Below, piece by piece: positions 3,313 to 29,110 of a DNA stretch of 32,240 nt; within the stretch, counting starts at the first letter, position 1, and each line of letters starts with the position of its first letter. This stretch comes from Dehalococcoidia bacterium (GTDB lineage: Bacteria > Chloroflexota > Dehalococcoidia > Lucifugimonadales > UBA3495): positions 1 through 32,240 of the forward strand of contig JASLXV010000017.1 of assembly GCA_030740155.1 (NCBI GenBank), in the 5' to 3' direction. The notes beneath the pieces were generated by a model. That model did no database searches. It was not told the origin of the DNA and worked only from the letters and a program-made list of their open reading frames with translations. A program made the translations under genes and the position numbers.

Positions 3313-4614
3313 TTGCGCTTGGACCTGGCGATCCATCGTGTTTCAGAGATTCACGCCGGGGACTCCACCCGGCTGGAGGGGACAAGCCTCCAGGTCGACG
3401 TGGAGGAGTTGCGGCGCCATCTCCTGGAGGACCGCCGCCTCGAAAGCATTGATCTGGACCTGGTCCGGCCCGGGGAGCTGTGCCGGGCAGGCTACGTCTT
3501 CGACATTGTGGAGCCCAGGGCCAAGGAGCCCGGCCACGGGACCGATTTCCCCGGCATCCTTGGTCCCATCTCCGTCGCGGGCCAGGGTACAACCCACGTG
3601 CTCCGGGGATCGGCGGTGACGGTCGTGGATGGCGGGCAGCCCGGAGGCGAATGGGGATACAACTCGAGAAGGGGCGGCATGGTAAAGGTCCTGGAGATGG
3701 GCGGACCAGCCGCGCCGGCCTCGCCCTATAGCAGCCTCCACCATCTGGTATTGGTCCCCCATGCCCTTCCGGAAATCGAACGGCACGCGGTACTCAACTC
3801 CCTGCGGGTGGCGTCTGTAAAGGCAGCAAACTACCTGGCCCGGGCCGGCCTGGGAAGGCCTCCCGCGTCCGAAGATGTTTACGAGTTGGAAGGCCCATCG
3901 GCCGAAGGACGCCGGGGGCTCCCTCGCTTGGCCTACATCGGCCAGATTCATGGCCACCAGCATGGAGCGGAGGTGGACGAGCACATCCTCTACGGCAGCA
4001 ACACTCGCGGTATGATGCCGGTATCGCTCCATCCCAACGAGTGGCTGGACGGCGCTGTAGTCGTCTCCTACTCGTGGGGAGCCCGCGGCCTCGAAACCTT
4101 CTTCTACCAGAACCAGCCCATCATCACCGACCTCTACCGGCGGCACCGTGCCGGAGAGATCACCTTCGCCGGCACTATCGCCACGGTTTCGTCCGACCTG
4201 GAAGAGGAGATGAGGCGCAACTCCATGCTGGCCGCCCAGATTGCCAAGTCGACTCTGAGGGCCGACGGGGTGATCCTGACGAAGTACGTGGGCGGCGCGC
4301 CTCATTCGGACATGTTCGAGACGGCCCGCTTGTGCGAGGCGGCGGGAGTCAGGACCGTTATCCAGGCCACCGACACGGCCCCGGACGGGCGGGCTGAGTC
4401 GGCCCTTCTCATGAGTGCGCCGGGGGTGGACGCGGTGGTAAGCTTGAGTGAGGGGGTTGACCTATCCTGGCGAGTACCGGCCGCGGAGCGTGTCATAGCG
4501 GGAAACCCGGAGGTGGCGGAGACCCTTGCCCCGGCACATGATCTGATGGCCAGGGCACTTTGCGGGGTGACCAACAACCAGGGAGCGTCCCGGCTCCGGT
4601 CCATGGTCTACTGA
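3313..4614 (+). CDS. grdE: Glycine/sarcosine/betaine reductase component B proprotein subunit (GrdE/GrdG/GrdI family); substrate unknown
   Basis: N-terminus MRLDLAIH like GrdE; DIVEPRAK, DFPGILG, G.GTTHVLRG, HPNEWLDGA, QNQPII and ADGVIL motifs. TTG start at 3313 with G-rich RBS is preferred over the ORF-track start 3190 because the promoter lies at 3241-3269. Confidence 0.85.
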   Translation: MRLDLAIHRVSEIHAGDSTRLEGTSLQVDVEELRRHLLEDRRLESIDLDLVRPGELCRAGYVFDIVEPRAKEPGHGTDFPGILGPISVAGQGTTHVLRGSAVTVVDGGQPGGEWGYNSRRGGMVKVLEMGGPAAPASPYSSLHHLVLVPHALPEIERHAVLNSLRVASVKAANYLARAGLGRPPASEDVYELEGPSAEGRRGLPRLAYIGQIHGHQHGAEVDEHILYGSNTRGMMPVSLHPNEWLDGAVVVSYSWGARGLETFFYQNQPIITDLYRRHRAGEITFAGTIATVSSDLEEEMRRNSMLAAQIAKSTLRADGVILTKYVGGAPHSDMFETARLCEAAGVRTVIQATDTAPDGRAESALLMSAPGVDAVVSLSEGVDLSWRVPAAERVIAGNPEVAETLAPAHDLMARALCGVTNNQGASRLRSMVY

Positions 4615-4654
4615 GAGCCCATCCAACAACTCCAGATGAGGCCACTCGAGGTCC

Positions 4655-4727
4655 TTCGACAGGCTCAGGACGAACGGCTTTCCCCCGCTTCGTACGATTA
4701 TCCCCCGTTCGTGGTGAGCCTGTCGAA
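4655..4727. repeat. REP-like inverted repeat pair (family A)
   Basis: TTCGACAGGCTCAGGACGAACGG (4655-4677) and CCGTTCGTGGTGAGCCTGTCGAA (4705-4727) are reverse complements at 21/23 positions, with a 27-nt loop. Confidence 0.8.
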
Positions 4728-4865
4728 CCACCGCAGCAGGCTATTGAATTGGGTCTTTGTACCCAGGCTGGATGCTATCCCCAAGTCGACTCACGAACAA
4801 CTCGACAATGAGCGCTGGACCGGAGAGGTTGACCTTCGAGTGAGCTTGGCGCCGGGAGTATAAAG

Positions 4866-6137
4866 ATGCTAGTGGTCCACTATCTGAATCAATTCTTCGG
4901 GGGCATCGGAAGCGAGGAGGCGGCCGGAACTCCTCCACAGGTGCGTGCGGGAGCCGTGGGCCCCGGCCGGGCGCTGGAGCAGGCCCTGCCCGAGGGCTCT
5001 CACGTCGTGTCCACCATCGTATGTGGCGACAACTACGCGGCCGAGCACCCGGAAGAGATCGCCGCCCTGGCCGTGGCAACGGTGCGCGACGCCGGGGCCG
5101 GCCTCCTGGTAGCGGGCCCGTGCTTCCAGGCGGGGCGCTACGGGGCAGCCGCCGGCGCGGTGTGCAACGCCGTCCAGGCCCAGCTGGGGGTGCCGGCTGT
5201 CACCGGCATGGCGGAGGAGAACCCCGGCGTGGACATCTACCGTGGGGAGATATACATAATCGACTCGGGCCGTGACGTGGCCCGGATGAAGGATGTCCTG
5301 GCGAAGATGGCTTCGCTGGGCGTCAATCTGGTGAACGGGCAGCCGGTGGGCCGGCCCGCCGAGGAAGGATACCTTCTCCAAGGGAAGCTGCGGTCAGAGT
5401 TCGTCGACCAGACGGCGGCCGAGCGCCTGGCGAACCTACTGCTGGCCAAGCTGAAAGGCGAGCCCTTCGAGTCAGAAGCCCCCGTTCAAGCCCCGGAGCC
5501 CGTGCCGGTCCCTCCGGCGGTGGCCGATCTATCCAATGCCACCATTGCCGTGGTGACCGATGGGGGCCTGGTCCCCAAGGGGAACCCGGACCGAATTCCC
5601 ACGGGGTTCGCCAAGGTCTGGGGGGCTTACAGCATCGCCGGGCGGGACGGCCTGATAGGCGAGGACTATGAGGTGGCCCATGGCGGCTACGACGTGCGGT
5701 ACGTCCAGGCCGACCCCAACCGTTTGGTGCCGGTGGATGTCCTGCGCGAGATGGAGCGGGACGGATTGTTCGGCAAGCTGCACGAGGAGTTTCTGTCCAC
5801 CACCGGAAACGTCAACCCTCTGGAGAACAGCCGGAGAATGGGCCGGGAGATGGTGGAGTGGCTCAAGATCGCGCAGGTTGACGGGGTGATCCTGGTCTCA
5901 ACTTGAGGGACCAGCACTCGCAGCGGCGCTGCGATCGGAACGGAGATCGAGAAAGCGGGAATTCCGGTGGCCCAGGTCACACCGATGACCCTGGTGGCCG
6001 AGGCGGTGGGTTCGAACCGCATCGTGCGGGGTCAAGGGATTGTTTGCCCCTTGGGCGACACCGGGCTTCCGCCCGGCGAGGAGCGGGAGTTGCGCCGTAA
6101 GGTGGTCCGGAAGGCATTGGACGCACTGGCTGAGTGA
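4866..6137 (+). CDS. grdB: Glycine/sarcosine/betaine reductase selenoprotein B (GrdB/GrdF/GrdH family), 423 aa, Sec at codon 347
   Basis: MLVVHYLNQFFGGIG N-terminus, AHGGYD, DPNRLVPVD. TGA at 5904-5906 lies in VILVST-U-GTSTRSGA and the frame continues with family-typical EIEKAGIPV...VGSNRIV...PLGD to TGA 6135-6137. SECIS-like hairpin follows the UGA. Confidence 0.92.
5918..5934 (+). promoter_or_regulatory. Bacterial SECIS-like hairpin
   Basis: Perfect 7-bp stem TCGCAGC/GCTGCGA with GGC loop, separated from the in-frame UGA by 11 nt. Confidence 0.75.
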
Positions 6138-6151
6138 GAAAGCGCCACGCT

Positions 6152-6187
6152 CTGGGGGAACTTCTTTAGGAAAAGAAGTTCCCCCAG
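6152..6187. terminator. Long hairpin between convergent grdB and sdhB; candidate terminator or REP-like element
   Basis: CTGGGGGAACTTCTTT-AGGA-AAAGAAGTTCCCCCAG, 16-bp perfect stem; no clear U-tract. Confidence 0.5.
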
Positions 6188-6214
6188 GCCCCCTCAAGAA
6201 ACCTGTGCTTGGCT

Positions 6215-6271: not shown

Positions 6272-6283
6272 GAGGCCTCGCCG

Positions 6284-7024
6284 CTACCTGATTCCAATAA
6301 GCCGCTTCAGCTTGTTCACCACCACCCGGCGCTTCAACCCCTGAATGGCCACACTGATGGGAATCCCCTTCGGACAAGCGGCGGAACACTCAAAGATCGT
6401 GTGACACCGCCACAAGCCCTCCTCGCTGGCTGCCACCCGCAACCGCTCCCGGGCAGCACTGTCCCGACTGTCGGAGACCAGGGCGAAGGCCCGGTTGAGC
6501 GCCGCCGGTCCCAGGAAATCGGCGTTCAGGCCGGCCACCGAGCAAGCCGAGTAGCAGAGGGCGCAGTAGACGCATTCCCGCTGGGGATCGATGGCTCTTC
6601 GCTCTTTGGAGTCCGGGGAGATCGCCACGGGCCCCCGGTCGTCTCCCACTGGAGAGAGGTAGGGCACGACTTGGAGCAGGCGTTGGTAGAATACTGCCGG
6701 GTCGACCACCAGGTCCCGCACCACCGGCAGATGCCGCATCGGCTCGACCCGCACCGTGCCGCCACGGCCGTCCAGCAATTGGCGCACCAGAGTGCGGCAC
6801 GCCAGGCCTTCCCGCCCGTTGATGACCGTGCCGCAGGACCCGCACATCCCCACCCGGCAGGCGCAGCGGTAGGCCAGCGAAGGATCGGCGTTTCGCTGCA
6901 CCCAGATGAGGGCGTCCAGCACGCTCATGCTTTCCGCTATGACGGGCACGGAAAAGCTCTGCCAGTGGGGGCCGGCTTCGGCGCCCGTTCCCGTTCGCTT
7001 AACCGCCAGCGTTATCTGTTCCAT
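6284..7024 (-). CDS. sdhB: Succinate dehydrogenase/fumarate reductase-like iron-sulfur subunit
   Basis: CRVGMCGSC...LAC [2Fe-2S], CVYCALCYSAC [4Fe-4S], CHTIFECSAACP [3Fe-4S], RDLVVD, FLGPAAL. Confidence 0.92.
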   Translation of the reverse strand: MEQITLAVKRTGTGAEAGPHWQSFSVPVIAESMSVLDALIWVQRNADPSLAYRCACRVGMCGSCGTVINGREGLACRTLVRQLLDGRGGTVRVEPMRHLPVVRDLVVDPAVFYQRLLQVVPYLSPVGDDRGPVAISPDSKERRAIDPQRECVYCALCYSACSVAGLNADFLGPAALNRAFALVSDSRDSAARERLRVAASEEGLWRCHTIFECSAACPKGIPISVAIQGLKRRVVVNKLKRLIGIR

Positions 7025-7052: not shown

Positions 7053-7448
7053 CTAGATTATGAACTGCAGCAGCGCCCAGGCACCATAGGCAAAGGTCGC
7101 CACGCCCAGCAGCCAGAGGCCAGCGGTGATGGGCCGCCGCCGTTCCGCGGCGGGCCGCCACTCCAGCAGGATGTTGCGGACTCCGTTGAGGCCGTGGAAT
7201 AGGACCAGAGCCAGTAGGGAGAAGTCCACGAAAACGAACAGCCCCTGGGCCAGCCGGCGTTCCACGATGTCGAACAGGACCAGCTCCTCCCGCCGGCCGT
7301 CGATCACGTCGGCGATGCCGGAGAAATGAGCCATCCAGATGTGGACCGCCAGGAAGAATATGAGCAACAGTCCGCTGACCCGCTGGAAGAACCAGGGCCA
7401 GAAGCCTGACGGGTCTCGCTCTCGTATGCCGGTCGTAGGGATGGTCAT
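7053..7448 (-). CDS. sdhD: SDH-like membrane anchor subunit (SdhD-type)
   Basis: 131 aa, three hydrophobic segments, WFFQRVSG, LAVHIW, FHGLNGVR. Confidence 0.82.
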   Translation of the reverse strand: MTIPTTGIRERDPSGFWPWFFQRVSGLLLIFFLAVHIWMAHFSGIADVIDGRREELVLFDIVERRLAQGLFVFVDFSLLALVLFHGLNGVRNILLEWRPAAERRRPITAGLWLLGVATFAYGAWALLQFII

Positions 7449-7481: not shown

Positions 7482-7883
7482 TCAGAAGATCAAGGGGAAG
7501 CTGACGTAGGCGGCCGTGCCGGTCGTAACCAGGGTCAAGGCCAGGCAGGCCCAGAACAGCGCCGCCTGACACCGGATGCCGATCCCCAGGTCCAGAAGGA
7601 CCACCCGCAGCCCGTTTAAGCCGTGATACAGTACCGCCGCCAGCAGCAGCAGGTCCAGGGCCACGAAGACCGGGGTTTGAAGCACCTTCAGCACGTCGTC
7701 GAAGGTGTCCGCTCCGGCCTGGCCGGTGGAAATGACGGCGATGTGCAGGAAGAGATAGCCAACCAGGGCCACTCCCGTTACCCGCTGCAGCAGCCAGGCC
7801 CACCAGCCGGCGTGGGTGCCGGAGTAGCGGTCGCGGGAGGGACCGTTGTGGAGTAGTAAGGCGCGGACCGGTGCGGCCAACAC
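7482..7883 (-). CDS. sdhC: SDH-like cytochrome b membrane subunit (SdhC-type)
   Basis: 133 aa, WLLQRVTG, YLFLHI, YHGLNGLRVVLLD. Confidence 0.85.
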   Translation of the reverse strand: MLAAPVRALLLHNGPSRDRYSGTHAGWWAWLLQRVTGVALVGYLFLHIAVISTGQAGADTFDDVLKVLQTPVFVALDLLLLAAVLYHGLNGLRVVLLDLGIGIRCQAALFWACLALTLVTTGTAAYVSFPLIF

Positions 7884-7889
7884 ACCCCC

Positions 7890-8564
7890 CTAGAAGAGTT
7901 CCATCTCCGGATTCTGCTCTTCGCCGATGCGGCGGAACACGGGGGGCTTCAACCCCTCGTAGAGGGCGCCCAGCCGTTGGTTGATATCCTCGTTCACCTT
8001 GGAGAAGAAGCTGTTTCCCCGAGCGTCGCCCTCCACCAGGAGGGGTCCCAGCTCGTTGAGGTCTAGGACCCACAGGGCCTCCGAGATGCCCAACTCCTCC
8101 ACCCAATACACCCCCAACACCCGCTGGATGGCCCGGCCGTAGATGGCTCCCAGTCCATAGCCCACTGTGGAGAGGCAGACAGCACCATGTTCCCTGAACA
8201 CATCCTGGTAGACCTTCTCTGACATGCCTGCCTTGCCCACCACGGCTCTGACCCCGTAGCGTCCCAGCAGTTCCGGCATGTATTTGGCGTAGCGGAAACT
8301 GGCGGTGGCCTGGAGTGAGGACACCTTGAACTCTCCGGGGGAGACCTCGACGCCGGCAGGGGAGGACTGGAAGCTGACGTTGGTCAAGGCGGCCAGGTCC
8401 AGGGGCGGCTCGTGGCCCTCCACGAGCATGTGCTGGTACACCCCGTCGCGGGCGGTGAACACCGGGCCCGTCAGGTAGACCAGGTCACCGGCGGACAGCT
8501 TGGCTAGGTCCTCCGGCGTGAGCGGGGTCTTGAGACGCCACTCGCGGCTCTCGGCTTGTTGCAT
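7890..8564 (-). CDS. Fe-S hydro-lyase beta subunit (class I fumarase/tartrate dehydratase family)
   Basis: LKTPLT, GDLVYLTGPVFTARD, VGKAGM, ELGISEALW, GPLLVEGDARGNS; start directly follows the alpha-subunit stop (TAGATG). Confidence 0.88.
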   Translation of the reverse strand: MQQAESREWRLKTPLTPEDLAKLSAGDLVYLTGPVFTARDGVYQHMLVEGHEPPLDLAALTNVSFQSSPAGVEVSPGEFKVSSLQATASFRYAKYMPELLGRYGVRAVVGKAGMSEKVYQDVFREHGAVCLSTVGYGLGAIYGRAIQRVLGVYWVEELGISEALWVLDLNELGPLLVEGDARGNSFFSKVNEDINQRLGALYEGLKPPVFRRIGEEQNPEMELF

Positions 8565-9512
8565 CTAGCCGATCCCCTCCCGGCGGTAGTACTCGGTGAA
8601 CCATCGCGGGTCTTCCCGGAACTCCACTGTCCCGTCCGGGTAGATGCGGCCGACGGCCCGCCGGTAGGCGGTGCAGAATTGGGAGATGGCTACCGGGACG
8701 CCCCCGGTGTGGGTGTAGGCTATCTCGATGTGCACGTCCAGGGCGGTGGTATCTCCACCCACGCCCATAACCCCGAAGCCGGTGCGGTCGGCCAGATCCA
8801 GTAGCTCCTCTTCCAGGGTGGCCACCGCCGGGTCGGGGTGCCGCTCTCCGATCAGCCGCAGGCAGGCAGCCTCCTTGGAGAGGCGGACGGCCTGGTCCTT
8901 GGTGCCGCCCAGTCCCACGCCGACCACCACCGGGGGGCAGGACAGGCCCCGCCGGGCGAACTCGGCCATGTTGTCCAGCAGGAACCGCTTTATGCCGTCC
9001 CGCCCGTCGGCGGGGAACAGCATCCGGTAGTCGGTGCCGAACAGGCCGCCCTTGTGGACGGCGATCAAGTCGATCCAGCTGGCATCGGGCTCGAAGGAGT
9101 AGTCCACGTTGGGGGCGTAGACCCCCACGTTGTTGCCGGGGTTGCGCCGGGTCAGAGGATGTACCCGGTTGGCCCGGAGCTGGATGTCCTGGGTGATGTC
9201 GGCAACCGCCCGCCGCAGGGACCGCTCCAGGGCGACGAAGCCGCCCTCGATGACCGCCTCGTTGCCGGCCTTCACGTAGTAGCGGGGCAGGCCGGTGTCC
9301 CCACACATGGGCCGGGCATCGGCGACCGCCACCTTGGCGTTTTCGATCAGGCGGCCCAGGATGACCCGGGCCAAGGGCTTGCTCTCCCGCTCCCAGGCCT
9401 GGCCGAACGCCACCAGGCCGTCCTGAGGCACCACGATGGCAGCCCGCTTGTTGGCCTCATAGGCGACCTGATAGATGAGTTCTTGGGAGATGCCGGTGGC
9501 GTCGGCAGTCAT
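8565..9512 (-). CDS. Fe-S hydro-lyase alpha subunit (class I fumarase/tartrate dehydratase family)
   Basis: PMCGDTG, VHPLTRRNPGNN, CPPVVVGVGLGG, GVMGVGGDTT, FCTAYRR; ATG at 9512 with GAGAGG upstream is preferred over ORF-track 9608. Confidence 0.88.
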   Translation of the reverse strand: MTADATGISQELIYQVAYEANKRAAIVVPQDGLVAFGQAWERESKPLARVILGRLIENAKVAVADARPMCGDTGLPRYYVKAGNEAVIEGGFVALERSLRRAVADITQDIQLRANRVHPLTRRNPGNNVGVYAPNVDYSFEPDASWIDLIAVHKGGLFGTDYRMLFPADGRDGIKRFLLDNMAEFARRGLSCPPVVVGVGLGGTKDQAVRLSKEAACLRLIGERHPDPAVATLEEELLDLADRTGFGVMGVGGDTTALDVHIEIAYTHTGGVPVAISQFCTAYRRAVGRIYPDGTVEFREDPRWFTEYYRREGIG

Positions 9513-10112: not shown

Positions 10113-11831
10113 ATGTACGAGAGCCTGGCCATGGACATCCTCATCCTGGGCGGCGGAGGCGCGGGCCTGATGGCGGCGCTTCACGCCCGCCGCAAAGGCC
10201 CCGACCTGCGCATCGCCGTGGCCGCCAAGGGATTGGTCGGCCAGAGCGGGTGCACCCGCATGGTGCAAGGGGGCTATAACGCGGTCATGGACCCCCGGGA
10301 CTCCTTCGATCTCCACTTTGAAGATACGGTCCGGGGCGGGGCTTTCATCAATGACCAGGAGTTGGCCTGGGTGCTGGTCAATCAGGCCCCCGGCATCATC
10401 GGAGAGCTGGAGCGGCTGGGCTGTTTCTTCGACCGCGACCGTGACGGGCGCATCTATCAAAAGGCCTTCGCCGGGCAGACCTTCGACCGCACGGTGCACC
10501 GGGGCGACCTGACCGGCATCGAGATCATGTCCCGGCTCAAGGAAAACGTCCTGGCCTCCGGCCTCCTCTTGTTGGACGAGCAGCGGGCGGTTTCCCTGCT
10601 GGCCGATGGGGAAGGGCGGACCGGCGGCGCGCTGTTGCTCGACATACGCACCGGGGGCTTCACCGCCGTTAGCGCCAAAGCCACCCTGGTGGCCACCGGA
10701 GGGGGCGCCCGCATGTACAGCATCGCGGCCCCCTCTCTCGAAAAGTCCGGTGACGGTATGGCCCTGTGCTATCGGGCCAGCTGCGTGATGCGCGACATGG
10801 AGATGTTCCAGTTCCACCCCACCGGGCTGGTGGCGGGCAAGTCCATTCTGACCGGGGCGGTGCTGGAAGAGGGGTTGCGGGGCGCCGGAGGGTACCTGTA
10901 CAACTCCCTGGGGGAGCGGTTCATGGAGCGGCACGATTCTCAGAGGATGGAGCGCTCCACCAGGGATCTGGTGTCCCGGGCCGCGTACATGGAGATTCAG
11001 GCGGGGCGGGCCACCCCCGATGGCGCGGTTCTCCTCGACGTCTCTCACCTGGGGGCCGAGTTTGTGGAGAAGACTTTTCCCGGCATGGTGGATCGTTGCC
11101 GGGAGGTGGGCTTCGACCTGGCCCGGGCCCCGGTCAAGGTCTCTCCTACCGCCCATTTCCACATGGGCGGGGCTGTTATCGACCCATGGTGCCGCACCGG
11201 CCTGGAAGGACTCTTCGTCGCCGGCGAAGACTCCGGGGGCGTTCACGGCGCCAACCGGCTGGGCGGCAACGGCGTGGCCGAATCCACCGTGTTCGGGGCC
11301 CTTGCCGGAGACGCCATGGCCGAGTTCGTGGCCGGCCGTCCCCAACCCGATCCGGTCCCGGCGCAGGTGAAAGAGGCGGTGGCCGAGGCGGTCCGGCCGT
11401 TGCGCCAGGAAGACGGCCGGTTAGACGGAGAGAACATACACGCCATCCGCCGGGAGATCGAAGACCTGATGTGGGTCCAGGGTGGCGTGGTGCGCGACGG
11501 CCCCGGCCTGGAGTCGGCCATCGCCGGCCTCGATGAACTGGAGGAACGGGCGGCCCGCGCTCCGGTGCCTCCGCTGCGGGAGTACAACCTGGCCTGGCAG
11601 GAGTGGCTCAACGTGCAGAACATCCTGACGGTGGCCCGGCTGACCTGCCAGAGCGCCTTGGCCCGCCGGGAGTCCCGCGGCTCTCACTACCGCAGCGATT
11701 TCCCCGATACCGACAACCGGGAATGGCTTTGCAACATCCTGGTTCGGCGGGACTCGGACGGCGCGCCAGAGGTGTGGCGGGAAGAGGCGAAGCTGACCCG
11801 CCTGCAGCCCGGCCCATCGGTGTCCCCGTGA
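10113..11831 (+). CDS. sdhA: Succinate dehydrogenase/fumarate reductase-family flavoprotein subunit (atypical; lacks the FAD-linking His)
   Basis: ILGGGGAG dinucleotide fold, QFHPTG, STRDLVSRA, HFHMGG, HGANRLGGN, RRESRGSHYRSD; GGAG RBS before ATG 10113. Confidence 0.88.
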   Translation: MYESLAMDILILGGGGAGLMAALHARRKGPDLRIAVAAKGLVGQSGCTRMVQGGYNAVMDPRDSFDLHFEDTVRGGAFINDQELAWVLVNQAPGIIGELERLGCFFDRDRDGRIYQKAFAGQTFDRTVHRGDLTGIEIMSRLKENVLASGLLLLDEQRAVSLLADGEGRTGGALLLDIRTGGFTAVSAKATLVATGGGARMYSIAAPSLEKSGDGMALCYRASCVMRDMEMFQFHPTGLVAGKSILTGAVLEEGLRGAGGYLYNSLGERFMERHDSQRMERSTRDLVSRAAYMEIQAGRATPDGAVLLDVSHLGAEFVEKTFPGMVDRCREVGFDLARAPVKVSPTAHFHMGGAVIDPWCRTGLEGLFVAGEDSGGVHGANRLGGNGVAESTVFGALAGDAMAEFVAGRPQPDPVPAQVKEAVAEAVRPLRQEDGRLDGENIHAIRREIEDLMWVQGGVVRDGPGLESAIAGLDELEERAARAPVPPLREYNLAWQEWLNVQNILTVARLTCQSALARRESRGSHYRSDFPDTDNREWLCNILVRRDSDGAPEVWREEAKLTRLQPGPSVSP

Positions 11832-21520: not shown

Positions 21521-22777
21521 ATGACCGCTCCGGTACGCCCCCAACGCCAGGCCCTGACGGGCAACAAGGCGGCAGCCCACGCGCTGAAGCTGGCCCGGAC
21601 CCAGGTCCTGTGCTACTTTCCCATTGGTCCTTCCGACGAGGTGGGAGAAGAACTCGCGCGGATGATCCAACGGGGAGAGCATGAGGCCCAGCTCATCGAG
21701 TTGGAGCATGAGCGCAGCGTGATGAACGCCCAGATCACCGCCACCCAGTCCGGGGTGCGATGCTCTTTCGCCACCAACTCCGAGGGCCTCCTCATCGCCG
21801 CCCAGCAGCTTGTATTCGCCTCCTATGCCCGCATTCCCCTGGTGGTGATCGTTGCCCACCGGGCGCTGGAGCCACCAGGGGTGGTCCGCTCCGACGACCA
21901 GGACACCATCATGTTCCGTGACATTCACTGGATCCACTACCACTGCGAGAACGCCCAGGACGTGCTGGACACCGTCATCCAGGCCTACCGGGTCAGCGAG
22001 GACGCATCGGTGCTACTGCCGACCTTCGTCACCTATGACGGCTGGGAGGTCTCCCACAACAGCTACCCGGTGGAGGTCCCGGATCAGGAAGCCATCGACC
22101 GCCTGCTGCCTCCCTTCGAGTTGCCGCCGGAGTTGGATTTCATCAAATCGCTGGACTTCGCCGCCTACTACGGCGGAGCCCGGATGAGCGGCTACGGCTA
22201 CATCGACGTAGACCGGGAGTACATGGAGCGCCGCTACCAGATGGACCGGGCCCTCAACGTCACCGCCAAGGACCTTATCAAACGGGTCCACCAGGAGTAC
22301 GTGGAGTTGGTCGGCCGGGGCTACGGTGGCTTGATTGAAGCCTACAAGCTGGAAGACGCCGAGGTAGCCATCGTGGCCATGGGCTCTCTGTCCGCCACCT
22401 CCCGCTACGCCGTCGACCGGCTCCGCGAACAGGGGAAGGCGGTGGGAATGGTAAAAGTCCACACCCTCCGGCCGTTTCCCGGCGAGGACCTGGTGGAGGC
22501 CCTGAAAGGGATCAAGGCGGTGGTGGTGCTGGACCGGAACCCGGTGGCCGCCGTCTACCAGGACCTGCGCAGCGCCCTGTTCGGGCAGCCGCAACCTCCG
22601 ATGGTGCTGGGCCGCATCGTGGGCCTGGGCGGCCGCGACGTTACCCACTGCAGTGTGATGTACATGGCGGAAGAAGCCATGGCGGCGGCGCGGCAGGGCC
22701 GCCCTGACGAGGCTCTGGGCTGGCACTTCCAGGTGATCGAGGACGAGGAGATGTTGGCCCGGGCGTTAAAGAAGTAA
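21521..22777 (+). CDS. porA: 2-oxoacid:ferredoxin oxidoreductase alpha subunit (PorA-like, altered active site)
   Basis: LTGNKAAA, YFPIGPS, AHRAL, ENAQDVLD, DGWEVSH, EDAEVAIVAMGS, LRPFP, GLGGRD; GAGGAG RBS. Confidence 0.88.
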   Translation: MTAPVRPQRQALTGNKAAAHALKLARTQVLCYFPIGPSDEVGEELARMIQRGEHEAQLIELEHERSVMNAQITATQSGVRCSFATNSEGLLIAAQQLVFASYARIPLVVIVAHRALEPPGVVRSDDQDTIMFRDIHWIHYHCENAQDVLDTVIQAYRVSEDASVLLPTFVTYDGWEVSHNSYPVEVPDQEAIDRLLPPFELPPELDFIKSLDFAAYYGGARMSGYGYIDVDREYMERRYQMDRALNVTAKDLIKRVHQEYVELVGRGYGGLIEAYKLEDAEVAIVAMGSLSATSRYAVDRLREQGKAVGMVKVHTLRPFPGEDLVEALKGIKAVVVLDRNPVAAVYQDLRSALFGQPQPPMVLGRIVGLGGRDVTHCSVMYMAEEAMAAARQGRPDEALGWHFQVIEDEEMLARALKK

Positions 22778-22843: not shown

Positions 22844-23707
22844 ATGCCCATAAAGATGGTCATGGAGACCCCGGAGCAGCGGGTCTACATGAACGTTACC
22901 GCCAATCAATGCCCCGGCTGCCCGGAGAACCTGGCGGCCCGCCTGGTGATGCACGTGGTCTTCGACGTTATGGCGGACCAGAAACCCATCGTCTTCGGCC
23001 AGGGGTGCGGCATCGGCCGGGACTTTCTCCAGCGCAGCGGCCTGGGCACCCATGACAGCGGAGTGGTCGGGATGCTCACCGCCATGCAGGTGCGGGGCAT
23101 CGACCGTCCCATCGTGGTTATCGACGGCGACGGTCAGGTGGACCTGGGACTGGAGGACCTGGCCACCGGTTTTCAGCAGGGCTACAAGTACCTCCACGTG
23201 GTTTGCGATAACCAGGCCCACGCCGCCAGCGGGAGCCACGCCACCGGCAGCACCCATCCCATGGCCCGCACCGGCGTGCGTCCCTCCGGCAAGCTGCGCC
23301 ACCCAAAACACTTCACGCTAATGCTCATGTTCAGTGGCGCCGAATACGTGGCCACCGCCTCCACCTCCCATCCGCAAGACCTCGAGCGGAAGATCCGGAA
23401 CGCGGCCACGCGGCTGCCCGCCTTTATCCAGATCCTCACCCCCTGCAACCCCTCTTGGGGCTACGACGACGACAAGGGAATAGAGGTGTCCCGCCTGGCG
23501 GTGAACAGCGGGATATGGCCCCTGTTCGAATGGAAAGACGGCGTTTTCGATCGCCAGAACATCCCAAGCAAGGCAACCGTGCGGGAGTATGTTGCGTCCC
23601 AGCGCCGCTACGCCCACCTCAGCGACGCCGACATTCAGTCGATGGAAGGGTACGTGAAGGAGCTGGACGACATGCTGTCCAAGCTGCAAACCGGCTTCAG
23701 CGCCTGA
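22844..23707 (+). CDS. porB: 2-oxoacid:ferredoxin oxidoreductase beta (TPP-binding) subunit
   Basis: CPGC, GC, GDG...DN TPP motif, YVATAS, PCNPSWG, LAVNSGIWPLFE, QRRYAHL. Confidence 0.85.
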   Translation: MPIKMVMETPEQRVYMNVTANQCPGCPENLAARLVMHVVFDVMADQKPIVFGQGCGIGRDFLQRSGLGTHDSGVVGMLTAMQVRGIDRPIVVIDGDGQVDLGLEDLATGFQQGYKYLHVVCDNQAHAASGSHATGSTHPMARTGVRPSGKLRHPKHFTLMLMFSGAEYVATASTSHPQDLERKIRNAATRLPAFIQILTPCNPSWGYDDDKGIEVSRLAVNSGIWPLFEWKDGVFDRQNIPSKATVREYVASQRRYAHLSDADIQSMEGYVKELDDMLSKLQTGFSA

Positions 23708-23906: not shown

Positions 23907-25595
23907 ATGGACCGGCCCTGGTTTCAGCATTACCCCGCCGGGGTGCCGAAGAGCATCTCCTACCCGAAGGTCCCCTTTTACCGTCTCCTCCAGGATTCCG
24001 CCACCCGCTTCCCAGACCGTACCGCCATCATCTTCTACGACGGCGTCGAAGGGCGGGAACTGGGCGCCACAAGCTACGCCGCCCTGGACGGCGAGTCGGA
24101 CCTATTTGCCGCGGCGTTGTCGGCACTGGGCATCGGCCGGGGAGACCGGGTGGCCTATTTCCTGCAGAACTCACCGGCCCTGGTGGTGGGGTTCTACGGC
24201 ATCCTCAAGGCTGGGGCCGTGGTGGTGCCCTGCAACCCGATGTACCGGGGCGAGGAGCTGGGCCATCAGCTTCGAGACTCGGGAGCCAAGGCTATCCTCT
24301 GCGAGGCCGGTCTCTATCCCCTCGTGGAGCAGGTGGCCGCGGATACCGCCCTGCGCCACGTCATCGTCACCGGCGGGCCGCTGGATGGCGAGGTACATTC
24401 CCCGGACCGGGAGGTCCATTCCATGGAAGCCCTGGTGGAATCGCAGCTGGGGCGCAAAGTCTTGCGCCCCTACCGGTGTCCGGACATTGATCCCGTGCGG
24501 GACCTGGCCTTTCTGCCTTACACCGGGGGCACTACGGGCGTGCCCAAGGGGAGCATGCTCACCCACCAAAACCTGGTGGTCAACGCCCTCCAGTTCAAGA
24601 CCTGGTTCCAGTACCGGGAGGGGGAAGAGGTCTTCATCGCCGCGTTGCCCCTCTTTCACATCGGGGGGATTGCCGGGGTTATGAATGTGCCGCTGGCCAC
24701 CGGGGCCACTATCGTGCTGTTCCGCCGGTTCGATCCCCTCGGCGTGCTTCGGGTGATCCAGGACTACCGGGCCACCCGCTTCCTGGGCGTCCCCACCATG
24801 TACATCGCCCTGCTCAACCAGCAGGAGGCGCGGTCCTTCGACCTGACCTCCCTCCGGGCCAGCCGCACCAGCGCCGCCTCGCTGCCGGCGGCGGTAAAAG
24901 GGGCCTTCGACCAACTGGTGGGCCATGAGGTGCTCGTAGAAGGTTATGGCCTCACCGAGACCTCGCCCCTGACCCACGCCAACCCCATCCACCGGGCCCG
25001 GGCCGGCTCCATCGGTGTCCCGTTGCCCGACACCGACGCCCGCATCGTGGACGCCGGCACGGGGACGGAGGTGCTGCCCGCGGGCGAGATCGGGGAGTTG
25101 GTGCTGCGAGGGCCTCAGGTGATGCAGGGTTACTGGCAAAACCCAGAGGAGACTCGCGCAGCCCTCCGCGATGAATGGCTATACACTGGCGATCTGGCTT
25201 ACATGGGTGAGGATGGGTATTTCTGTATCGTCGACCGGAAGAAGGACGTGATCAATGCCGCGGGTTTCAAAGTCTGGCCGCGGGAGGTGGAAGAAGTGCT
25301 CTATCAGCATCCTCACATCCAGGCGGCGGCGGTGGTCGGGATGCCCGACAGCTATCGAGGGGAGACGGTCAAGGCGGTGGTGGTGCTGAAGAAGGAACAC
25401 GGCTTCCCCTCGGACGAAGCGGCCAAAGAGGAGATCGTGGCCTTCTGCCGCCGGGAGCTGGCCGCCTACAAGGTGCCCCGCGTCGTGGAGATCCGGGACA
25501 GCCTTCCCATCAGCGGGGCGGGCAAGGTCCTGCGCCGGGTGTTGCGGGATGCGGCCGCGGCTGACGAGGGGACCACTAACGCCTCGGGCCATTGA
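23907..25595 (+). CDS. Acyl-CoA ligase (long-chain-fatty-acid--CoA ligase-like, ANL superfamily)
   Basis: YTGGTTGVPKG, EGYGLTETSP, YTGD, IVDRKKD, PREVEEVL, AYKVPR, GKVLRR. Confidence 0.92.
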   Translation: MDRPWFQHYPAGVPKSISYPKVPFYRLLQDSATRFPDRTAIIFYDGVEGRELGATSYAALDGESDLFAAALSALGIGRGDRVAYFLQNSPALVVGFYGILKAGAVVVPCNPMYRGEELGHQLRDSGAKAILCEAGLYPLVEQVAADTALRHVIVTGGPLDGEVHSPDREVHSMEALVESQLGRKVLRPYRCPDIDPVRDLAFLPYTGGTTGVPKGSMLTHQNLVVNALQFKTWFQYREGEEVFIAALPLFHIGGIAGVMNVPLATGATIVLFRRFDPLGVLRVIQDYRATRFLGVPTMYIALLNQQEARSFDLTSLRASRTSAASLPAAVKGAFDQLVGHEVLVEGYGLTETSPLTHANPIHRARAGSIGVPLPDTDARIVDAGTGTEVLPAGEIGELVLRGPQVMQGYWQNPEETRAALRDEWLYTGDLAYMGEDGYFCIVDRKKDVINAAGFKVWPREVEEVLYQHPHIQAAAVVGMPDSYRGETVKAVVVLKKEHGFPSDEAAKEEIVAFCRRELAAYKVPRVVEIRDSLPISGAGKVLRRVLRDAAAADEGTTNASGH

Positions 25596-25830: not shown

Positions 25831-26610
25831 ATGGCAGACACCGTGTTATTGGAGGTCCGGAACCGGGTGGCCTACGTTACCCTCAACCGGCCGGAGAAAC
25901 TGAACGCCGTCAACAATGAGATGATCGCGGACCTCTTTGACGCCTTCGACGAGGTCAACCGGAACCCGGACATCTGGGTGGTCCTCCTCACTGGTGCGGG
26001 CCGGGCCTTCTGTACCGGCCACGACCTGGTGATGGGCCGGCTGGAGAGGGCCGACGACGAGAAGCCCCCGCGGGGCGACACCGACGACCTGTACGTTTAC
26101 CTCAGCCGCATCTGGAAACCGGTCATCGCCGCCATCAACGGCTACTGCCTGGCCCAGGGCGGGGGCTTGGCGCTGCTGAGCGACATCCGCATCGCGTCGG
26201 AGACGGCCCAGTTCGGCTGGCCTCAGGTCAGGCGGGGCATCGCCTCGATCAGCGGGCCGACCATCCTCTCCCACTACGTGCCCCTGGGCTCCGCCCTCAA
26301 GTTCCTGTTCACCGGAGAGCTCTGCGATGCCCAGGAGGCCTACCGCATCGGACTGGTCCAGGAGGTGGTGCCCACGGACAAGCTGATGGACCGCTGCGAA
26401 GAGATCGTCCGCGGGATCGCCGAGAACTCGGCACCCTTGGCGGTGCGCACCATCAAGGAGGCTGCCATCACAGGCCTGGGCATCGGCGATTTCACCGAGA
26501 GGGTTGCGAACTCGCGCCGAGCCTGGGTGGCCATGGGCGAAACGGAGGACTCAAAGGAGGGGCTGGACGCCTTCGCGGAGAAGCGCAAGCCTGTCTTCAA
26601 GGGACATTAG
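25831..26610 (+). CDS. Enoyl-CoA hydratase/isomerase (crotonase) superfamily protein
   Basis: TLNRPEKLNA, GAGRAFCTGHDL, KPVIAAING, IGLVQEVV, EDSKEGLDAFAEKRKPVF; AAGGAGG RBS. Confidence 0.92.
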   Translation: MADTVLLEVRNRVAYVTLNRPEKLNAVNNEMIADLFDAFDEVNRNPDIWVVLLTGAGRAFCTGHDLVMGRLERADDEKPPRGDTDDLYVYLSRIWKPVIAAINGYCLAQGGGLALLSDIRIASETAQFGWPQVRRGIASISGPTILSHYVPLGSALKFLFTGELCDAQEAYRIGLVQEVVPTDKLMDRCEEIVRGIAENSAPLAVRTIKEAAITGLGIGDFTERVANSRRAWVAMGETEDSKEGLDAFAEKRKPVFKGH

Positions 26611-26631
26611 GCCCGGCAGGGCTGGCGGGCC

Positions 26632-27819
26632 ATGGCCGCGGTCTTGGAGGGAATAACTGCCCTGGACCTGACCCAGGGTGTCGCCGGTCCTTATTGCACC
26701 AAGCTCCTGGCCGGGATGGGGGCCGAGGTCATCAAGGTGGAGACTCCGGCTACCGGCGACCCGTCGCGGGGCCTCGGCCCCTTCGTGAACGATGACCCCC
26801 ATCCCGAGAAGAGTCTCCTCTTTCTCTACCTCAACACCGGTAAAAAAGGCCTGACCCTGGATATACAGAGTGGGGCTGGCCGGGATATCCTCCGTGAACT
26901 CGCGAGAGGGGTGGATATCCTAGTTGAGGGCTTTGAACCCCGTCTCATGCCCGGCCTGGGGCTCCACTACAGCCGGCTCTCGGGGGACAACCCCGGGCTA
27001 GTTATGACCTCACTCACTTTCTTCGGCCAGGACGGCCCCTATGGCGAGTACAAAGGTGAGGAGATAATCGCTCAGGCGATGAGCGGGAATCTCCAGATAA
27101 CCGGCGAACCGGACCGTGAGCCGGTGATGATAGGAGGCCATTTCGCCCAGTACGTGGGAGGCCAGGCAGCGTGTGTCGCTACCCTGATGGCGATGTACCA
27201 CGCCATGATCACCGGGCAGGGCCAGCACGTCGACTGCTCTATCGTGGAGGCCAACGCCGACCTGCTGGATAGCTGGGGCGTGAACGCTGTGCTGGGGATG
27301 AAACAACAGCGGACCGGGACGCGCCATCACGGATTGTACCCGGCTCAGGCCTACCCGTGCCGGGACGGATACGCGGTCCTGGGGACAGAACCGGCAGGCT
27401 GGCATACCCTCGTCGACTTGGTGGGTGACGAAGTCCTGCGCGACCCCAAATATGCCGACCCCGGACGCAAAAAGTTCCAGGAGGAGATCGACCCCGTCCT
27501 GGTCTCGTGGTTGCGAGACAGGAACAAATTGGACGTCCACCACGCTGCCCAAAACAGGCGGGTGGCCTCCGGGTACCTAATGACCCCGGAGGACATGCTG
27601 GAGTCGCCCCAACTGCGGGAACGGGAGTATTTTCAAGAAATCGACCACCCGGCTACTGGACCGTCCAGGTATCCGGGCCCTCCCTTTCGGTTCTCCGGGG
27701 CCGGGTGGGATCGGAGTCGGGCCCCCCTTCTCGGCGAGCACAATCAAGAGGTCTACGGCCGGCGCCTGAGCCTGTCCGATGGGGACCTGGTCCGGCTCAA
27801 GCGGCGGGGAGTGATCTGA
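26632..27819 (+). CDS. Family III (CaiB/BaiF) CoA-transferase, probably a non-catalytic subunit
   Basis: AGPYCTKLLAGMGAEVIKVE, LNTGKK, FGQDGPY, GQGQHVDCS, APLLGEHN; Gln where the catalytic Asp is expected (FAQYVGG). Confidence 0.9.
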   Translation: MAAVLEGITALDLTQGVAGPYCTKLLAGMGAEVIKVETPATGDPSRGLGPFVNDDPHPEKSLLFLYLNTGKKGLTLDIQSGAGRDILRELARGVDILVEGFEPRLMPGLGLHYSRLSGDNPGLVMTSLTFFGQDGPYGEYKGEEIIAQAMSGNLQITGEPDREPVMIGGHFAQYVGGQAACVATLMAMYHAMITGQGQHVDCSIVEANADLLDSWGVNAVLGMKQQRTGTRHHGLYPAQAYPCRDGYAVLGTEPAGWHTLVDLVGDEVLRDPKYADPGRKKFQEEIDPVLVSWLRDRNKLDVHHAAQNRRVASGYLMTPEDMLESPQLREREYFQEIDHPATGPSRYPGPPFRFSGAGWDRSRAPLLGEHNQEVYGRRLSLSDGDLVRLKRRGVI

Positions 27820-27826
27820 GGCCAAG

Positions 27827-29110
27827 ATGAACCGCGCACTGCTGCATGGAGTCCGGGTCTTGGACATGACTCAGATTCGTGCCGGGCCCAAGGCCGCCAA
27901 ATGGCTGGCCGATGGCGGGGCCGAGGTCATCAAGGTAGAGTCCCGCCAGCGCTCCGATGGCAGGGGGTTTGGGCGCCGGGGAGGCGACCGCAGGCAGGCC
28001 GTACCCCTGGCGGCGGTGCCAGAGGCCGAGCAGCGGGCGCGGAACCGCCGGGGCTTCGAGCAGCTCAACCGCAACAAGCTGGGCCTGTCCATCGACCTCT
28101 CCAAACCCGAGGGCATCTCTCTGCTCCAGCGGTTGGTCGCCGTTAGCGACGTGGTGATGGACAATTTCAGCTACGGCGTGATGGACCGGCTGGGCCTGGG
28201 CTACCGGGAACTGTGCCGTGTGCGGCCCGACATCATCATGATCTCCATGCCGGGCTTCGGCGCCAGCGGCCCCTTTCGGGACCACGTGGCTTTTGGGTGG
28301 GCCCAAGAGCACATGGCCGGTATAACCGCCATGACGGGTTACGTCGGCGGACCCCCGCTGAAGACCGGGACCATCGTGGCAGACCCGCTGAACGGCGTCC
28401 ACGCCGCGGTGGCGGTCCTGGGCTGCCTGATGTACCGGGCACGGACCGGCAAGGGGCAGCTCATCGACCTTTCCCACCTGGAATCGCTCATCTGCCTGGT
28501 GGGTGATGCCGTTCTGGACTACACCATCAACGGTCGGGTGTGGGAGCGCATGGGTAACCGCCACCCGGTTTACGCTCCCCAGGGGGTGTACCGCTGCCTG
28601 GGCGACGACAAGTGGATAAGCGTGACCGTGGCCAGCGACAACGAGTGGCGAGCCCTTTGTGGAGTGATTGGCCGCCTTGATCTAGCCAGAGATCCTCGCT
28701 TCGCCGGTAACTTCAGCCGCAGGAGGGACCAGGACTCCCTCGACCCCATCATCGAGGAGTGGACCCGCCGGCACGAGCAGTACCGGGCCATGGCGCTGCT
28801 CCAGGGCGCCGGGGTGCGCGCCGGGGCCGTACTGGACCAGGATGAAGCCCTGACCAACCCTCAGGCCCGGAGCCGCGGCTTTCTTCCCGTATTGGCCCAC
28901 CCGGACGGCGTCCATCACCCGTACATCGACACTCCCGCCAGGTTCTCACGCACGCCGGCCGGGGTGCGGGCCCCAGGGCCGCTGCTGGGGGAACACAACG
29001 GGTACCTCCTGGGAGAGCTCCTGGGGTTGCAACCTGAAGAGCTGCGGCGCCTGGAGGCCGCCGGCGTGACCGCCACGCTTTCGACGGACCTCTCGGGCGG
29101 CTGTAGTTAG
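27827..29110 (+). CDS. Family III (CaiB/BaiF) CoA-transferase, catalytic subunit
   Basis: AGP..LADGGAEVIKVE, NRNKL, GFGASGP, VADPLNG (Asp present), GKGQLIDLS, PLLGEHN. Confidence 0.9.
   Translation: MNRALLHGVRVLDMTQIRAGPKAAKWLADGGAEVIKVESRQRSDGRGFGRRGGDRRQAVPLAAVPEAEQRARNRRGFEQLNRNKLGLSIDLSKPEGISLLQRLVAVSDVVMDNFSYGVMDRLGLGYRELCRVRPDIIMISMPGFGASGPFRDHVAFGWAQEHMAGITAMTGYVGGPPLKTGTIVADPLNGVHAAVAVLGCLMYRARTGKGQLIDLSHLESLICLVGDAVLDYTINGRVWERMGNRHPVYAPQGVYRCLGDDKWISVTVASDNEWRALCGVIGRLDLARDPRFAGNFSRRRDQDSLDPIIEEWTRRHEQYRAMALLQGAGVRAGAVLDQDEALTNPQARSRGFLPVLAHPDGVHHPYIDTPARFSRTPAGVRAPGPLLGEHNGYLLGELLGLQPEELRRLEAAGVTATLSTDLSGGCS

Follow-up and report, generated by a model that had tools for sequence, protein, structure and literature searches.

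The described systems closest to the locus reported here are succinate dehydrogenase (SDH; E. coli SdhCDAB, 1NEK) together with the methanogen TfrA, the two-subunit class I fumarate hydratases (FH) and L-tartrate dehydratases (M. jannaschii 7XKY, L. major 6MSO), and the AprBA-QmoABC complex (PMC3333476). For SAR202 bacteria, the main text of Mehrshad et al. (PMC5864207) proposes sulfite oxidation by AprBA and Sat, the sulfite coming from organosulfur degradation; the term 'qmo' does not occur in that main text. According to PMC11489063, no earlier report existed of bacteria degrading 3-sulfopropionate; it cites a Konstanz thesis (J. Mayer) in which Roseovarius nubinhibens ISM degrades this compound via sulfoacrylate and sulfolactate, and names no genes for it there.

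We analysed a stretch of 32,240 nucleotides from a Dehalococcoidia bacterium (assembly GCA_030740155.1, contig JASLXV010000017.1), in the following called the window. It is the entire contig C17 of a genome of 3.6 Mb and 93.7% completeness (G000, here the host genome), and the host is a SAR202-type Dehalococcoidia. An earlier note on this DNA had described 26 kb of the window as a single catabolic island for sulfonates. All genes named there were recovered in place by profile searches and translations. We are confident, though, that the 26 kb are a genus-level patchwork of five separately inherited blocks: a Grd-type selenoenzyme pair (block 1), SDH-like and hydro-lyase genes (block 2), aprBA-qmoABC (block 3), a 2-oxoacid:ferredoxin oxidoreductase (OFOR) with a CoA ligase (block 4), and a crotonase with CoA-transferases (block 5). 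The conserved unit of the region is block 2. It combines a membrane-bound look-alike of complex II with one of two-subunit class I fumarase, and in both the substrate pocket is altered. The best overall explanation, to which we would give an even chance, is that within this patchwork the module of block 2 converts 3-sulfopropanoate via 3-sulfoacrylate to sulfolactate and that sulfite is oxidised by Apr-Qmo-Sat.

A six-gene module resembling complex II and class I fumarase

The six genes of block 2, referred to as the module, were found together in all 21 SAR202-type loci. Elsewhere (Alphaproteobacteria, Nitrospinota and others) the flavoprotein gene adjoins the hydro-lyase genes in 42 of 43 loci. 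The module is present in 23 of 351 evenly drawn alphaproteobacterial genomes and on 12 plasmids, and its cultured hosts include Paracoccus versutus, Nisaea denitrificans, Methylobacterium nodulans and Cupriavidus necator N-1. Homologues occupy more than 3,000 protein clusters and are common in Roseobacter-group genera, among them one Roseovarius sp. As the database names are 'fumarate hydratase', 'tartrate dehydratase' and 'succinate dehydrogenase', these clusters are probably mislabelled as Krebs-cycle enzymes.

With SdhCDAB and TfrA the module shares the four-subunit layout, the two small anchors and the Cys motifs of SdhB. It differs from SDH and fumarate reductase in that its flavoprotein is nearly always paired with the hydro-lyase, is only about 33% identical to the host's own SdhA and scores below the sdhA_frdA cut-off (TIGR01812, 450.5 bits, cut-off 567.3) as well as below that of TfrA, its best NCBIfam match (567 bits, cut-off 718). 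The hydro-lyase belongs to the same fold family (TIGR00722) as class I FH and L-tartrate dehydratase but lies below the equivalog cut-offs for fumarate hydratase and for TtdA/TtdB.

The earlier note had regarded the SDH-like and hydro-lyase pair as something other than housekeeping enzymes, and we agree, as canonical enzymes are located elsewhere in the host genome. SdhAB is encoded on contig C100 (SdhA with 717 bits to TIGR01812, cut-off 567) and a class II fumarase-like gene on C85, under the FumC cut-off (536 vs 665) and over that of the AspA subfamily; E1 of pyruvate dehydrogenase lies on C32 and KorAB on C67. With these copies present, a housekeeping SDH, fumarase or pyruvate:ferredoxin oxidoreductase identity of the window genes was rejected. 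The host genome also encodes three more divergent SdhA/TfrA-like flavoproteins without an adjacent sdhB (C99:20236-21870, C14:4083-5324, C32:28060-29703), of which the one on C99 has quite different active-site motifs. In the relative G047 a fumA-fumB-sdhC-sdhD run (C1:2821349-2825669, locus L024) is directly followed by an Xsc-like gene, and the 20-kb stretch read contains neither sdhA nor sdhB.

Active sites of the module

The non-canonical active-site residues pointed out before were confirmed by alignments and motif counts and are conserved across homologues. In the flavoprotein, H45 of E. coli SdhA, which we take to be the His carrying FAD covalently, is replaced by Cys in all 84 sequences covering the site. 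H242, T254, E255, R286, H354 and R399 of E. coli SdhA presumably make up the dicarboxylate site. Aligned to 1NEK, five of these are kept, and T254 is replaced by Glu in 87 of 87 sequences (EEG motif); in addition there are two new invariant Arg.

For the hydro-lyase we used the list of catalytic residues given in part of a preprint on M. jannaschii FH (MjFH; bioRxiv 2022.09.03.506457). The alpha subunit retains the three cluster Cys, D62, R102 and H257 of the M. jannaschii enzyme, and the beta subunit T80, R32, R84 and K104. In contrast to class I FH, Q61 is Gly or Ala and KGxGS reads KGGLFG in 89 of 89 alpha homologues, an extra invariant Arg stands in an RxNRVH motif, and T81 of the beta subunit is Ala in all motif variants listed. 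According to the same portion of the preprint, non-polar changes at Q61 and at T81 inactivate MjFH on fumarate and malate, and the KGxGS motif is likewise required for the activity of this enzyme. Judged from these residues, the chemistry appears to be kept and the pocket to be larger and still cationic, which makes fumarate an unlikely substrate. An anionic substrate would fit, because the four basic substrate-binding residues are retained and one Arg is added.

Sulfonate-related genes around the module

Whether the neighbourhood is shared with known sulfonate genes had been proposed as a check on the island. The module does co-occur with such genes in Proteobacteria, but the full neighbourhood is kept only in the host genome and its congener G001. 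In Paracoccus versutus the module lies in a stretch of about 35 kb together with an ATP-binding cassette (ABC) transporter, yeiH, tauE, Ldh-family and hydroxyacid dehydrogenases (which we read as ComC/SlcC-like), a tripartite tricarboxylate transporter, hpsN/O/P-like genes, suyA- and suyB-like genes, a sulfate exporter and a sulfite oxidase. The suyB call is based on 69% identity to a gene of the Cupriavidus pinatubonensis hpsN-hpsO cluster. Genes similar to suyAB directly follow the module in two loci (L072, L095), a CuyA-like gene (333 bits, cut-off 450) is located inside it in three related loci, and the Xsc-like gene after the module in G047 reaches 464 bits (cut-off 620). Nine of ten plasmid loci read (of 12 hits) have TauE, YeiH or sulfite dehydrogenase, and one or the other of these was seen near the module in Pseudomonas, Paracoccus, Pseudorhizobium, Methylobacterium, Sulfitobacter and Cupriavidus.

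A similar association was seen at the level of genomes. Comparing the 23 alphaproteobacterial module genomes with the 328 others, SuyB was found in 8 vs 24, Xsc in 9 vs 32 and CuyA in 5 vs 24, and any of the three in 15 vs 65 (odds ratio 7.6, a value inflated by kinship and habitat). Of 43 further module genomes, 19 have SuyB as well. Taken with the pocket residues, this context suggests that the substrate of the module is probably a C3 sulfonate.

Further neighbours recur in loci of unrelated bacteria. A thiamine pyrophosphate (TPP) enzyme similar to 2-hydroxyacyl-CoA lyase and acetolactate synthase stands directly upstream of the module sdhB in unrelated Proteobacteria (L092, L110, L120, also L111 and L122) and is a candidate for a downstream step. 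A 279-aa amidohydrolase follows the module in four loci (L070, L107, L109, L110), and DUF3604 is found nearby in five.

Proposed route and alternatives

By this reading the flavoprotein would oxidise 3-sulfopropanoate to trans-3-sulfoacrylate, passing electrons via the Fe-S subunit to quinone, and the hydro-lyase would hydrate trans-3-sulfoacrylate to (R)-3-sulfolactate, which corresponds spatially to (S)-malate. The (R)-isomer, which is the substrate of SuyAB, would arise if water is added as in fumarase with the sulfonate in the place of the distal carboxylate. Sulfolactate would then be desulfonated by enzymes encoded elsewhere, in many Proteobacteria SuyAB; candidates in SAR202 are Ldh_2-family dehydrogenases and Xsc-like TPP enzymes. 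Three Ldh_2 dehydrogenases and one Xsc-like TPP enzyme of the host genome could handle sulfolactate. The sulfite would finally be oxidised by AprBA-QmoABC and the unlinked sat product via adenosine 5'-phosphosulfate (APS) to sulfate, with electrons again going to quinone.

The first two steps are exactly the reactions of the R. nubinhibens ISM thesis as cited in PMC11489063, and the thesis enzymes may be those of the module. Of the sulfonate route put forward in the earlier note, the segment from sulfopropanoate via sulfoacrylate to sulfolactate thus has a precedent in the thesis as well as the proteobacterial context; for the Grd pair, OFOR, ligase, crotonase and CoA-transferases no link to such a route was found. 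Our literature search yielded no description of the six-gene module and no named enzymes degrading 3-sulfopropanoate. A 2026 review (PMC12890257) names no enzyme for this step in its accessible part, and a search by enzyme names gave only a coenzyme M paper (PMC9457059), which mentions sulfoacrylic acid. Since 3-sulfopropanoate arises from fermentation of sulfoquinovose and 2,3-dihydroxypropane-1-sulfonate and from homotaurine, the module would be a concrete candidate for its degradation. In SAR202 it could account for where these abundant bacteria of the dark ocean obtain the sulfite that they presumably oxidise. What this region adds is the SAR202 branch of the module, the absence of known lyases there, an alternative linked to methylmalonate semialdehyde dehydrogenase (MMSDH), and the resolution of the island into blocks.

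Several observations weigh against a C3 sulfonate route ending in sulfolactate. The co-occurrence with lyases is confounded by habitat, genome size and kinship, and 8 of the 23 alphaproteobacterial module genomes contain none of SuyB, Xsc and CuyA. By our query set, in which weak matches to NitT/TauT-type ABC transporters were counted, 47 of 73 non-SAR202 loci have no sulfonate-related neighbour; among 20 evenly drawn loci read (of 21 new), TauE occurred in one and a NitT/TauT-type ABC transporter in two. SuyB is absent from the host genome and from 22 of 22 other SAR202 module genomes searched. CuyA was found in none of five SAR202 module genomes, and the host genome is without it. Its Xsc-like gene on C38 is under the cut-off (435 vs 676) and, with a presence in 31 of 36 genomes, almost a core gene of the family; not being module-specific, it is not supported as a partner of the module. 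R. nubinhibens ISM is not among the names listed for module homologues. Finally, the invariant Glu for T254 puts an acid at a position that in SDH presumably binds a carboxylate, and this does not sit easily with an anionic substrate.

The same Glu would suit a cationic or hydrogen bond-donating group, and the module might act on another substituted propanoate or succinate, such as a sulfinate (3-sulfinopropanoate), a thioether or sulfonium compound (methylmercaptopropionate, dimethylsulfoniopropionate (DMSP)) or a sulfur-free compound. The sulfonate neighbours would then reflect the clustering of catabolic genes on plasmids. That most loci have no sulfonate neighbour agrees with this, as do a 3-sulfinopropanoyl-CoA desulfinase 9 kb from the module in Sulfitobacter THAF37 and a cupin, read as thiol-dioxygenase-like (no Pfam match at 1e-8), beyond the Grd pair in eight SAR202 loci. 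We nevertheless regard it as unlikely: the hydro-lyase retains its basic residues and gains one, TauE, YeiH or sulfite dehydrogenase recurs across the six genera, the lyase genes are enriched at genome level, and the cupin travels with Grd rather than with the module. A cationic substrate such as DMSP or betaine, which the Glu and the neighbouring Grd pair might suggest, was lowered for related reasons, Grd travelling separately and the basic residues of the hydro-lyase being kept.

A different outcome of a sulfonate substrate is that block 2 desulfonates alone. Water would be added at the carbon bearing the sulfonate, and the resulting bisulfite adduct would break down, giving malonate semialdehyde and sulfite from 3-sulfopropanoate or oxaloacetate and sulfite from sulfosuccinate; in the window the sulfite would pass straight to the adjacent AprBA-QmoABC. 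Cassettes with sulfite export or oxidation genes and without a lyase are found in Pseudomonas MPC6, Pseudorhizobium NT-26 and Methylobacterium nodulans. In MPC6 the module abuts MMSDH (695 bits, cut-off 448.5) and is accompanied by tauE, yeiH and sulfite oxidase. No match to SuyB was found on the plasmids of the three strains, and the restriction of this search to plasmids reduces its weight. In the module tree, MMSDH neighbours turn up in four separate positions (L103; L107, a 108-aa remnant; L109/L110; L070), in P. versutus a yeiH and a tauE belong to the module itself in addition to the exporter that adjoins suyAB, the nearby tricarboxylate and dicarboxylate transporters fit sulfosuccinate, and the lack of SuyB in all 23 SAR202 module genomes points in the same direction. 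Other loci argue for a separate lyase instead, namely those with suyAB-like or Xsc-like genes directly after the module or a CuyA-like gene inside it. The thesis, as cited, names sulfolactate; MMSDH is missing from the host genome, with none over the cut-off in five SAR202 module genomes; and the hydro-lyases linked to MMSDH and to SuyAB have identical motifs. In a tree of the concatenated subunits (FastTree, midpoint root, no outgroup; 78 loci, those in which any of the three subunits was missing or incomplete having been left out) the two groups were not separated either. On balance we consider direct release a possibility of lesser probability. That the fumarase look-alike is a novel C-S cleaving enzyme, freeing sulfite after SDH-like oxidation without SuyAB, CuyA, Xsc or an oxygenase, seems slightly more doubtful still. 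Were it true, every step would be oxygen-independent and feed the quinone pool, and a sulfite source would stand directly upstream of the newly acquired AprBA-QmoABC, which would oxidise the sulfite and conserve more energy. It would also explain the sulfite supply in SAR202 without a known C3 sulfo-lyase and would extend to some 6% of the alphaproteobacterial genomes in the sample. We put the route to sulfolactate somewhat ahead of direct sulfite release, given the thesis and the operons with linked suyAB.

Composition of the region from separate blocks

The distribution of the blocks was assessed in 61 genomes, comprising the host genome, one congener (G001), 35 others of the family and 24 from other families of the order. 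All blocks occur together in the host genome and the congener only. Individually, aprA is present in 28 genomes, hydro-lyase alpha in 6, window-type GrdE in 12 and window-type OFOR alpha in 13, and aprBA-qmoABC was found in 4 of 20 aprA loci read. Three genomes (G011, G035, G047) have the hydro-lyase without OFOR, ten have OFOR without the hydro-lyase and seven have Grd without it. In the single-contig genome G025 the Grd pair and the SDH-like block lie at 2.70 Mb, OFOR at 1.63 Mb and aprBA at 2.28 Mb. G023 (L141) has the same Grd flanks as G025-type genomes, but no block 2 between them, and in G040 and G049 a window-type aprBA-qmoABC has unrelated neighbours and no hydro-lyase. Of the 21 SAR202-type hydro-lyase loci, nine have an adjacent Grd pair and one, that of the congener, an adjacent aprA; aprA is present in 17 of 22 module genomes, mostly unlinked and of the usual type. 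One conserved island was rejected on this distribution, and the single-island claim of the earlier note is not borne out, its modules being unlinked in relatives. The island as a whole is the local gene order of one genus and matters less than block 2.

The earlier note had joined the region into one pathway assembled in the genus, leading from sulfopropanoate via sulfolactate and sulfopyruvate through OFOR to sulfoacetyl-CoA, with the CoA-transferases and the Grd selenoenzyme freeing sulfite for Apr-Qmo. The layout common to the host genome and its congener speaks for it, and so does co-presence: aprA occurs in 6/6 hydro-lyase, 11/12 Grd and 12/13 OFOR genomes vs 28/61 overall, all four Qmo-type genomes carry the window-type OFOR, and in G040 the Grd pair is 8 kb from OFOR. 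RNA-library contigs from four of ten listed runs, which had been picked with window 6284-16200, touch parts of every block examined (pieces of at least 99% cover aprBA-qmoABC in X1, X2 and X5, with scattered pieces elsewhere); such contigs show neither level nor co-transcription and were not used as expression evidence. The unlinked blocks outside the genus and the genomes with one block but not the other tell against a single pathway. Moreover, aprA is common in the family regardless of the other blocks (24/36), no sulfolactate dehydrogenase is located in the window, and the Grd and OFOR loci read in relatives have no recurrent sulfonate gene as a neighbour. With tblastn, the crotonase gives 46 matches in the host genome and each CoA-transferase about 100; such large paralogue families are usual for the SAR202 group. 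We therefore consider one pathway through all blocks improbable. The Grd pair, the OFOR with its ligase and the crotonase/CoA-transferase block are, as far as their sequences tell, separate SAR202 catabolic units.

The gene order itself is well supported. The window is matched at 99.9% (L173, 11521-24788) and 99.4% (L172, 19709-27702) by two conspecific metagenome contigs. In the congener, a pair of contigs with 86-98% identity covers 3240-14060 and 13922-29494 and repeats the whole gene order. Since all of these repeat it, the layout is not an assembly artefact; for the left end (3313-11520) the support comes from the congener alone. The earlier note had missed that the genes fall into at least four blocks or directions of transcription, with palindromes of the repetitive extragenic palindrome (REP) type and a GIY-YIG gene between them. 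Feature positions are compiled in Table 1.

Table 1. Features of the analysed region with their positions in the window and the basis of each assignment.
Feature	Block	Position	Strand	Basis
GrdE/GrdG-like component B alpha	1	3313..4614	+	PF09338 238 bits; below GrdG, FarE cut-offs
GrdB-like selenoprotein	1	4866..6138	+	TIGR01918 365 bits, cut-off 65
SECIS-like hairpin, begins 11 nt past UGA		5918..5934	+	fold and conservation in 19 loci
SdhB-like Fe-S subunit	2	6284..7024	-	TIGR00384 213 bits, cut-off 88
SdhD-like small membrane anchor	2	7053..7448	-	translation; kept in 21/21 SAR202-type loci
SdhC-like small membrane anchor, start uncertain	2	7482..7883	-	translation; kept in 21/21 SAR202-type loci
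Fe-S hydro-lyase beta	2	7890..8564	-	PF05683; alignment to 7XKY_B
Fe-S hydro-lyase alpha	2	8565..9512	-	TIGR00722 230 bits, cut-off 100.65; alignment to 7XKY_A
SdhA/TfrA-like flavoprotein, divergent from the other five genes	2	10113..11831	+	alignment to 1NEK
aprB	3	12046..12492	+	translation; homologues beside aprA in relatives
aprA	3	12539..14407	+	TIGR02061 948 bits, cut-off 641.75
81-aa ORF between aprA and qmoA		14408..14653	+	no Pfam/NCBIfam match; no tblastn match in congener (L006)
qmoA	3	14840..16138	+	HdrA-like; 71-89% to G040, G049, G001
qmoB	3	16143..18284	+	HdrA-like with FlpD domain
qmoC	3	18301..19476	+	NF038018 391 bits, cut-off 300
GIY-YIG nuclease gene		19689..20018	+	PF01541; REP-type palindromes either side; not in congener
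OFOR gamma-delta fusion (porCD)	4	20366..21379	+	TIGR02175 86 bits, cut-off 81
OFOR alpha (porA)	4	21521..22777	+	below all equivalog cut-offs; alignment to 9BT4, 5C4I
OFOR beta (porB)	4	22844..23707	+	invariant DNQAHAASGSH
AMP-forming acyl-CoA ligase	4	23907..25595	+	PF00501
Crotonase-family protein	5	25831..26610	+	PF00378; large paralogue family
Two family III CoA-transferases	5	26632..29110	+	PF02515; large paralogue family

AprBA-QmoABC

Block 3 has the gene order aprB-aprA-qmoA-qmoB-qmoC, with aprA and qmoC above curated cut-offs. The aprBA and sat genes without dsr are shared with the SAR202 AprBA-Sat system as presented in the main text of PMC5864207. The usual layout in the family is sat-aprB-aprA without qmo, in contrast to the host genome, which has a different AprA type, qmoABC and an unlinked sat. 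AprA of the window is 83-85% identical to that of G040 and G049, but only about 59-63% to the usual family type. In 16 loci read with usual-type AprA (of 24 such genomes) qmo was nearby in none and sat adjacent in 12, and qmoC was absent from four of four such genomes searched. The host's sat (C32:68336-69598, L151) stands beside NAD synthase without aprBA, is 67-78% identical to usual-type copies and keeps the NAD synthase neighbour of five of those. From this synteny and identity, the simplest reading is that the genus probably lost its resident aprBA and gained an aprBA-qmoABC of the other type directly downstream of block 2. This position may or may not reflect selection. The region reveals a second, Qmo-coupled type of APS reductase in the SAR202 group.

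Because sat is present and dsrA absent, Apr-Qmo probably runs oxidatively, in line with the earlier proposal that it oxidises sulfite. No dsrA over the cut-off was found in any of five genomes searched (the host genome being 93.7% complete). Dissimilatory sulfate reduction was rejected; the NIR_SIR genes on C90 and C99 are of the assimilatory type, not Dsr.

Grd-type selenoenzyme pair

The pair in block 1 resembles component B of glycine, sarcosine and betaine reductases (GrdE/GrdB) and the fluoroacetate reductase FarE in its alpha/beta arrangement and in the selenocysteine (Sec) at the STU position. It differs from them in having UxxSxxS instead of UxxCxxC, in lacking the alpha cleavage Cys and in scoring below all substrate-specific cut-offs. 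In the GrdE-like alpha subunit no Cys stands at the expected cleavage site and a conserved HGHQHG stretch is present. The GrdB-like gene has an in-frame TGA at 5904-5906 within the motif STUGTSTRS, where three paralogues of the host genome read TUGxCNRC. UGA and GTSTR[S/C] are conserved in 19 related loci, with UxxSxxS in 18 and UxxSxxC in one. The hairpin following the UGA resembles a selenocysteine insertion sequence (SECIS) and shows a two-sided change in L141. As selA is present in the host genome as well, Sec incorporation at this UGA is predicted.

The window subfamily (L139-L149) often has genes for a 190-aa cupin and a member of the isochorismatase family as neighbours, and in some genomes grdA/grdC-like genes adjoin it; in the host genome grdA and a GrdC-like gene lie on C54. 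At least five more GrdB/GrdE pairs and fragments are found there (C54, C69, C79 two, C91, C11, C59), several with UGA (TUGxCNRC), and one grdA also has UGA. For a member of a group that apparently lives in oxic water, the expansion is large. The term 'glycine reductase' is not mentioned in the available part of PMC6946804. The Grd pair is an uncharacterised SAR202 enzyme variant for which no sulfonate link was found and which is worth a study of its own.

OFOR, CoA ligase, crotonase and CoA-transferases

The OFOR of block 4 has the same alpha, beta and gamma-delta subunits as archaeal-type pyruvate:ferredoxin oxidoreductase (9BT4) and oxalate oxidoreductase (5C4I). The catalytic Glu and the alpha Arg are kept in the alignment. 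The Thr of YPITP and an Asn of the beta subunit, which we take to bind the pyruvate carboxylate in pyruvate:ferredoxin oxidoreductase, are both lost. The alpha subunit reads FPIGP where YPITP is expected, Thr31 being Gly, which is conserved in homologues, and DNQAHAASGSH stands at the site of the beta Asn. It further differs from 9BT4 and 5C4I in travelling with an acyl-CoA ligase, which adjoins it in 10 of 11 other loci read.

The window-type OFOR with its ligase (20366-25595; L161-L171, L175, L177) is conserved at 68-93%, and 12 of 13 carriers have aprA. No close relative was found outside Chloroflexota-type records. A plasmid search with PorA gave matches at 32-34% only, a metagenome scan with PorA seven loci and no new context, and an ESM Atlas search generic OFOR-beta clusters only. 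Like the Grd pair, this OFOR is an uncharacterised SAR202 variant without a sulfonate link found and deserves its own study. A second OFOR of the host genome (C38:114983-117105, L031) has YPIRP and oxalate-oxidoreductase motifs, with NF045791 and NF045792 as best matches, under their cut-offs. No ordinary aldehyde dehydrogenase was found in the host genome (one weak PF00171 match on C40); four relatives searched have one to four each.

Block 5 (window 25770-29494) shares 98.4% DNA identity with the congener (L006), and its CoA-transferases are 99.7% identical as proteins, compared with 86-92% in other parts of the region, which suggests a recent exchange between the two species.

Minor features of the region

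Across the blocks, GC content at third codon positions (GC3) is 0.76-0.90, and the overall GC of the window is close to the genome value of 0.63; with no signal in either, a recent foreign origin by composition was rejected. The REP-type palindromes at 4650-4732, 6143-6277, 9614-9900, 19535-20209, 23800-23835 and 29160-29225 mark the block borders. They belong to several families with 9-20 exact-pattern copies apiece in the host genome, and one family flanks the GIY-YIG gene, which itself has three further copies there, one of them 98% identical. Outside the blocks, a Peptidase_MA-like gene (242-1803) is split over two frames around 853-859, probably by a frameshift or sequencing error. An insertion-sequence remnant with internal stops occupies 31044-31702, and an amino-acid ABC substrate-binding gene (31827-32240) is cut at the contig end.

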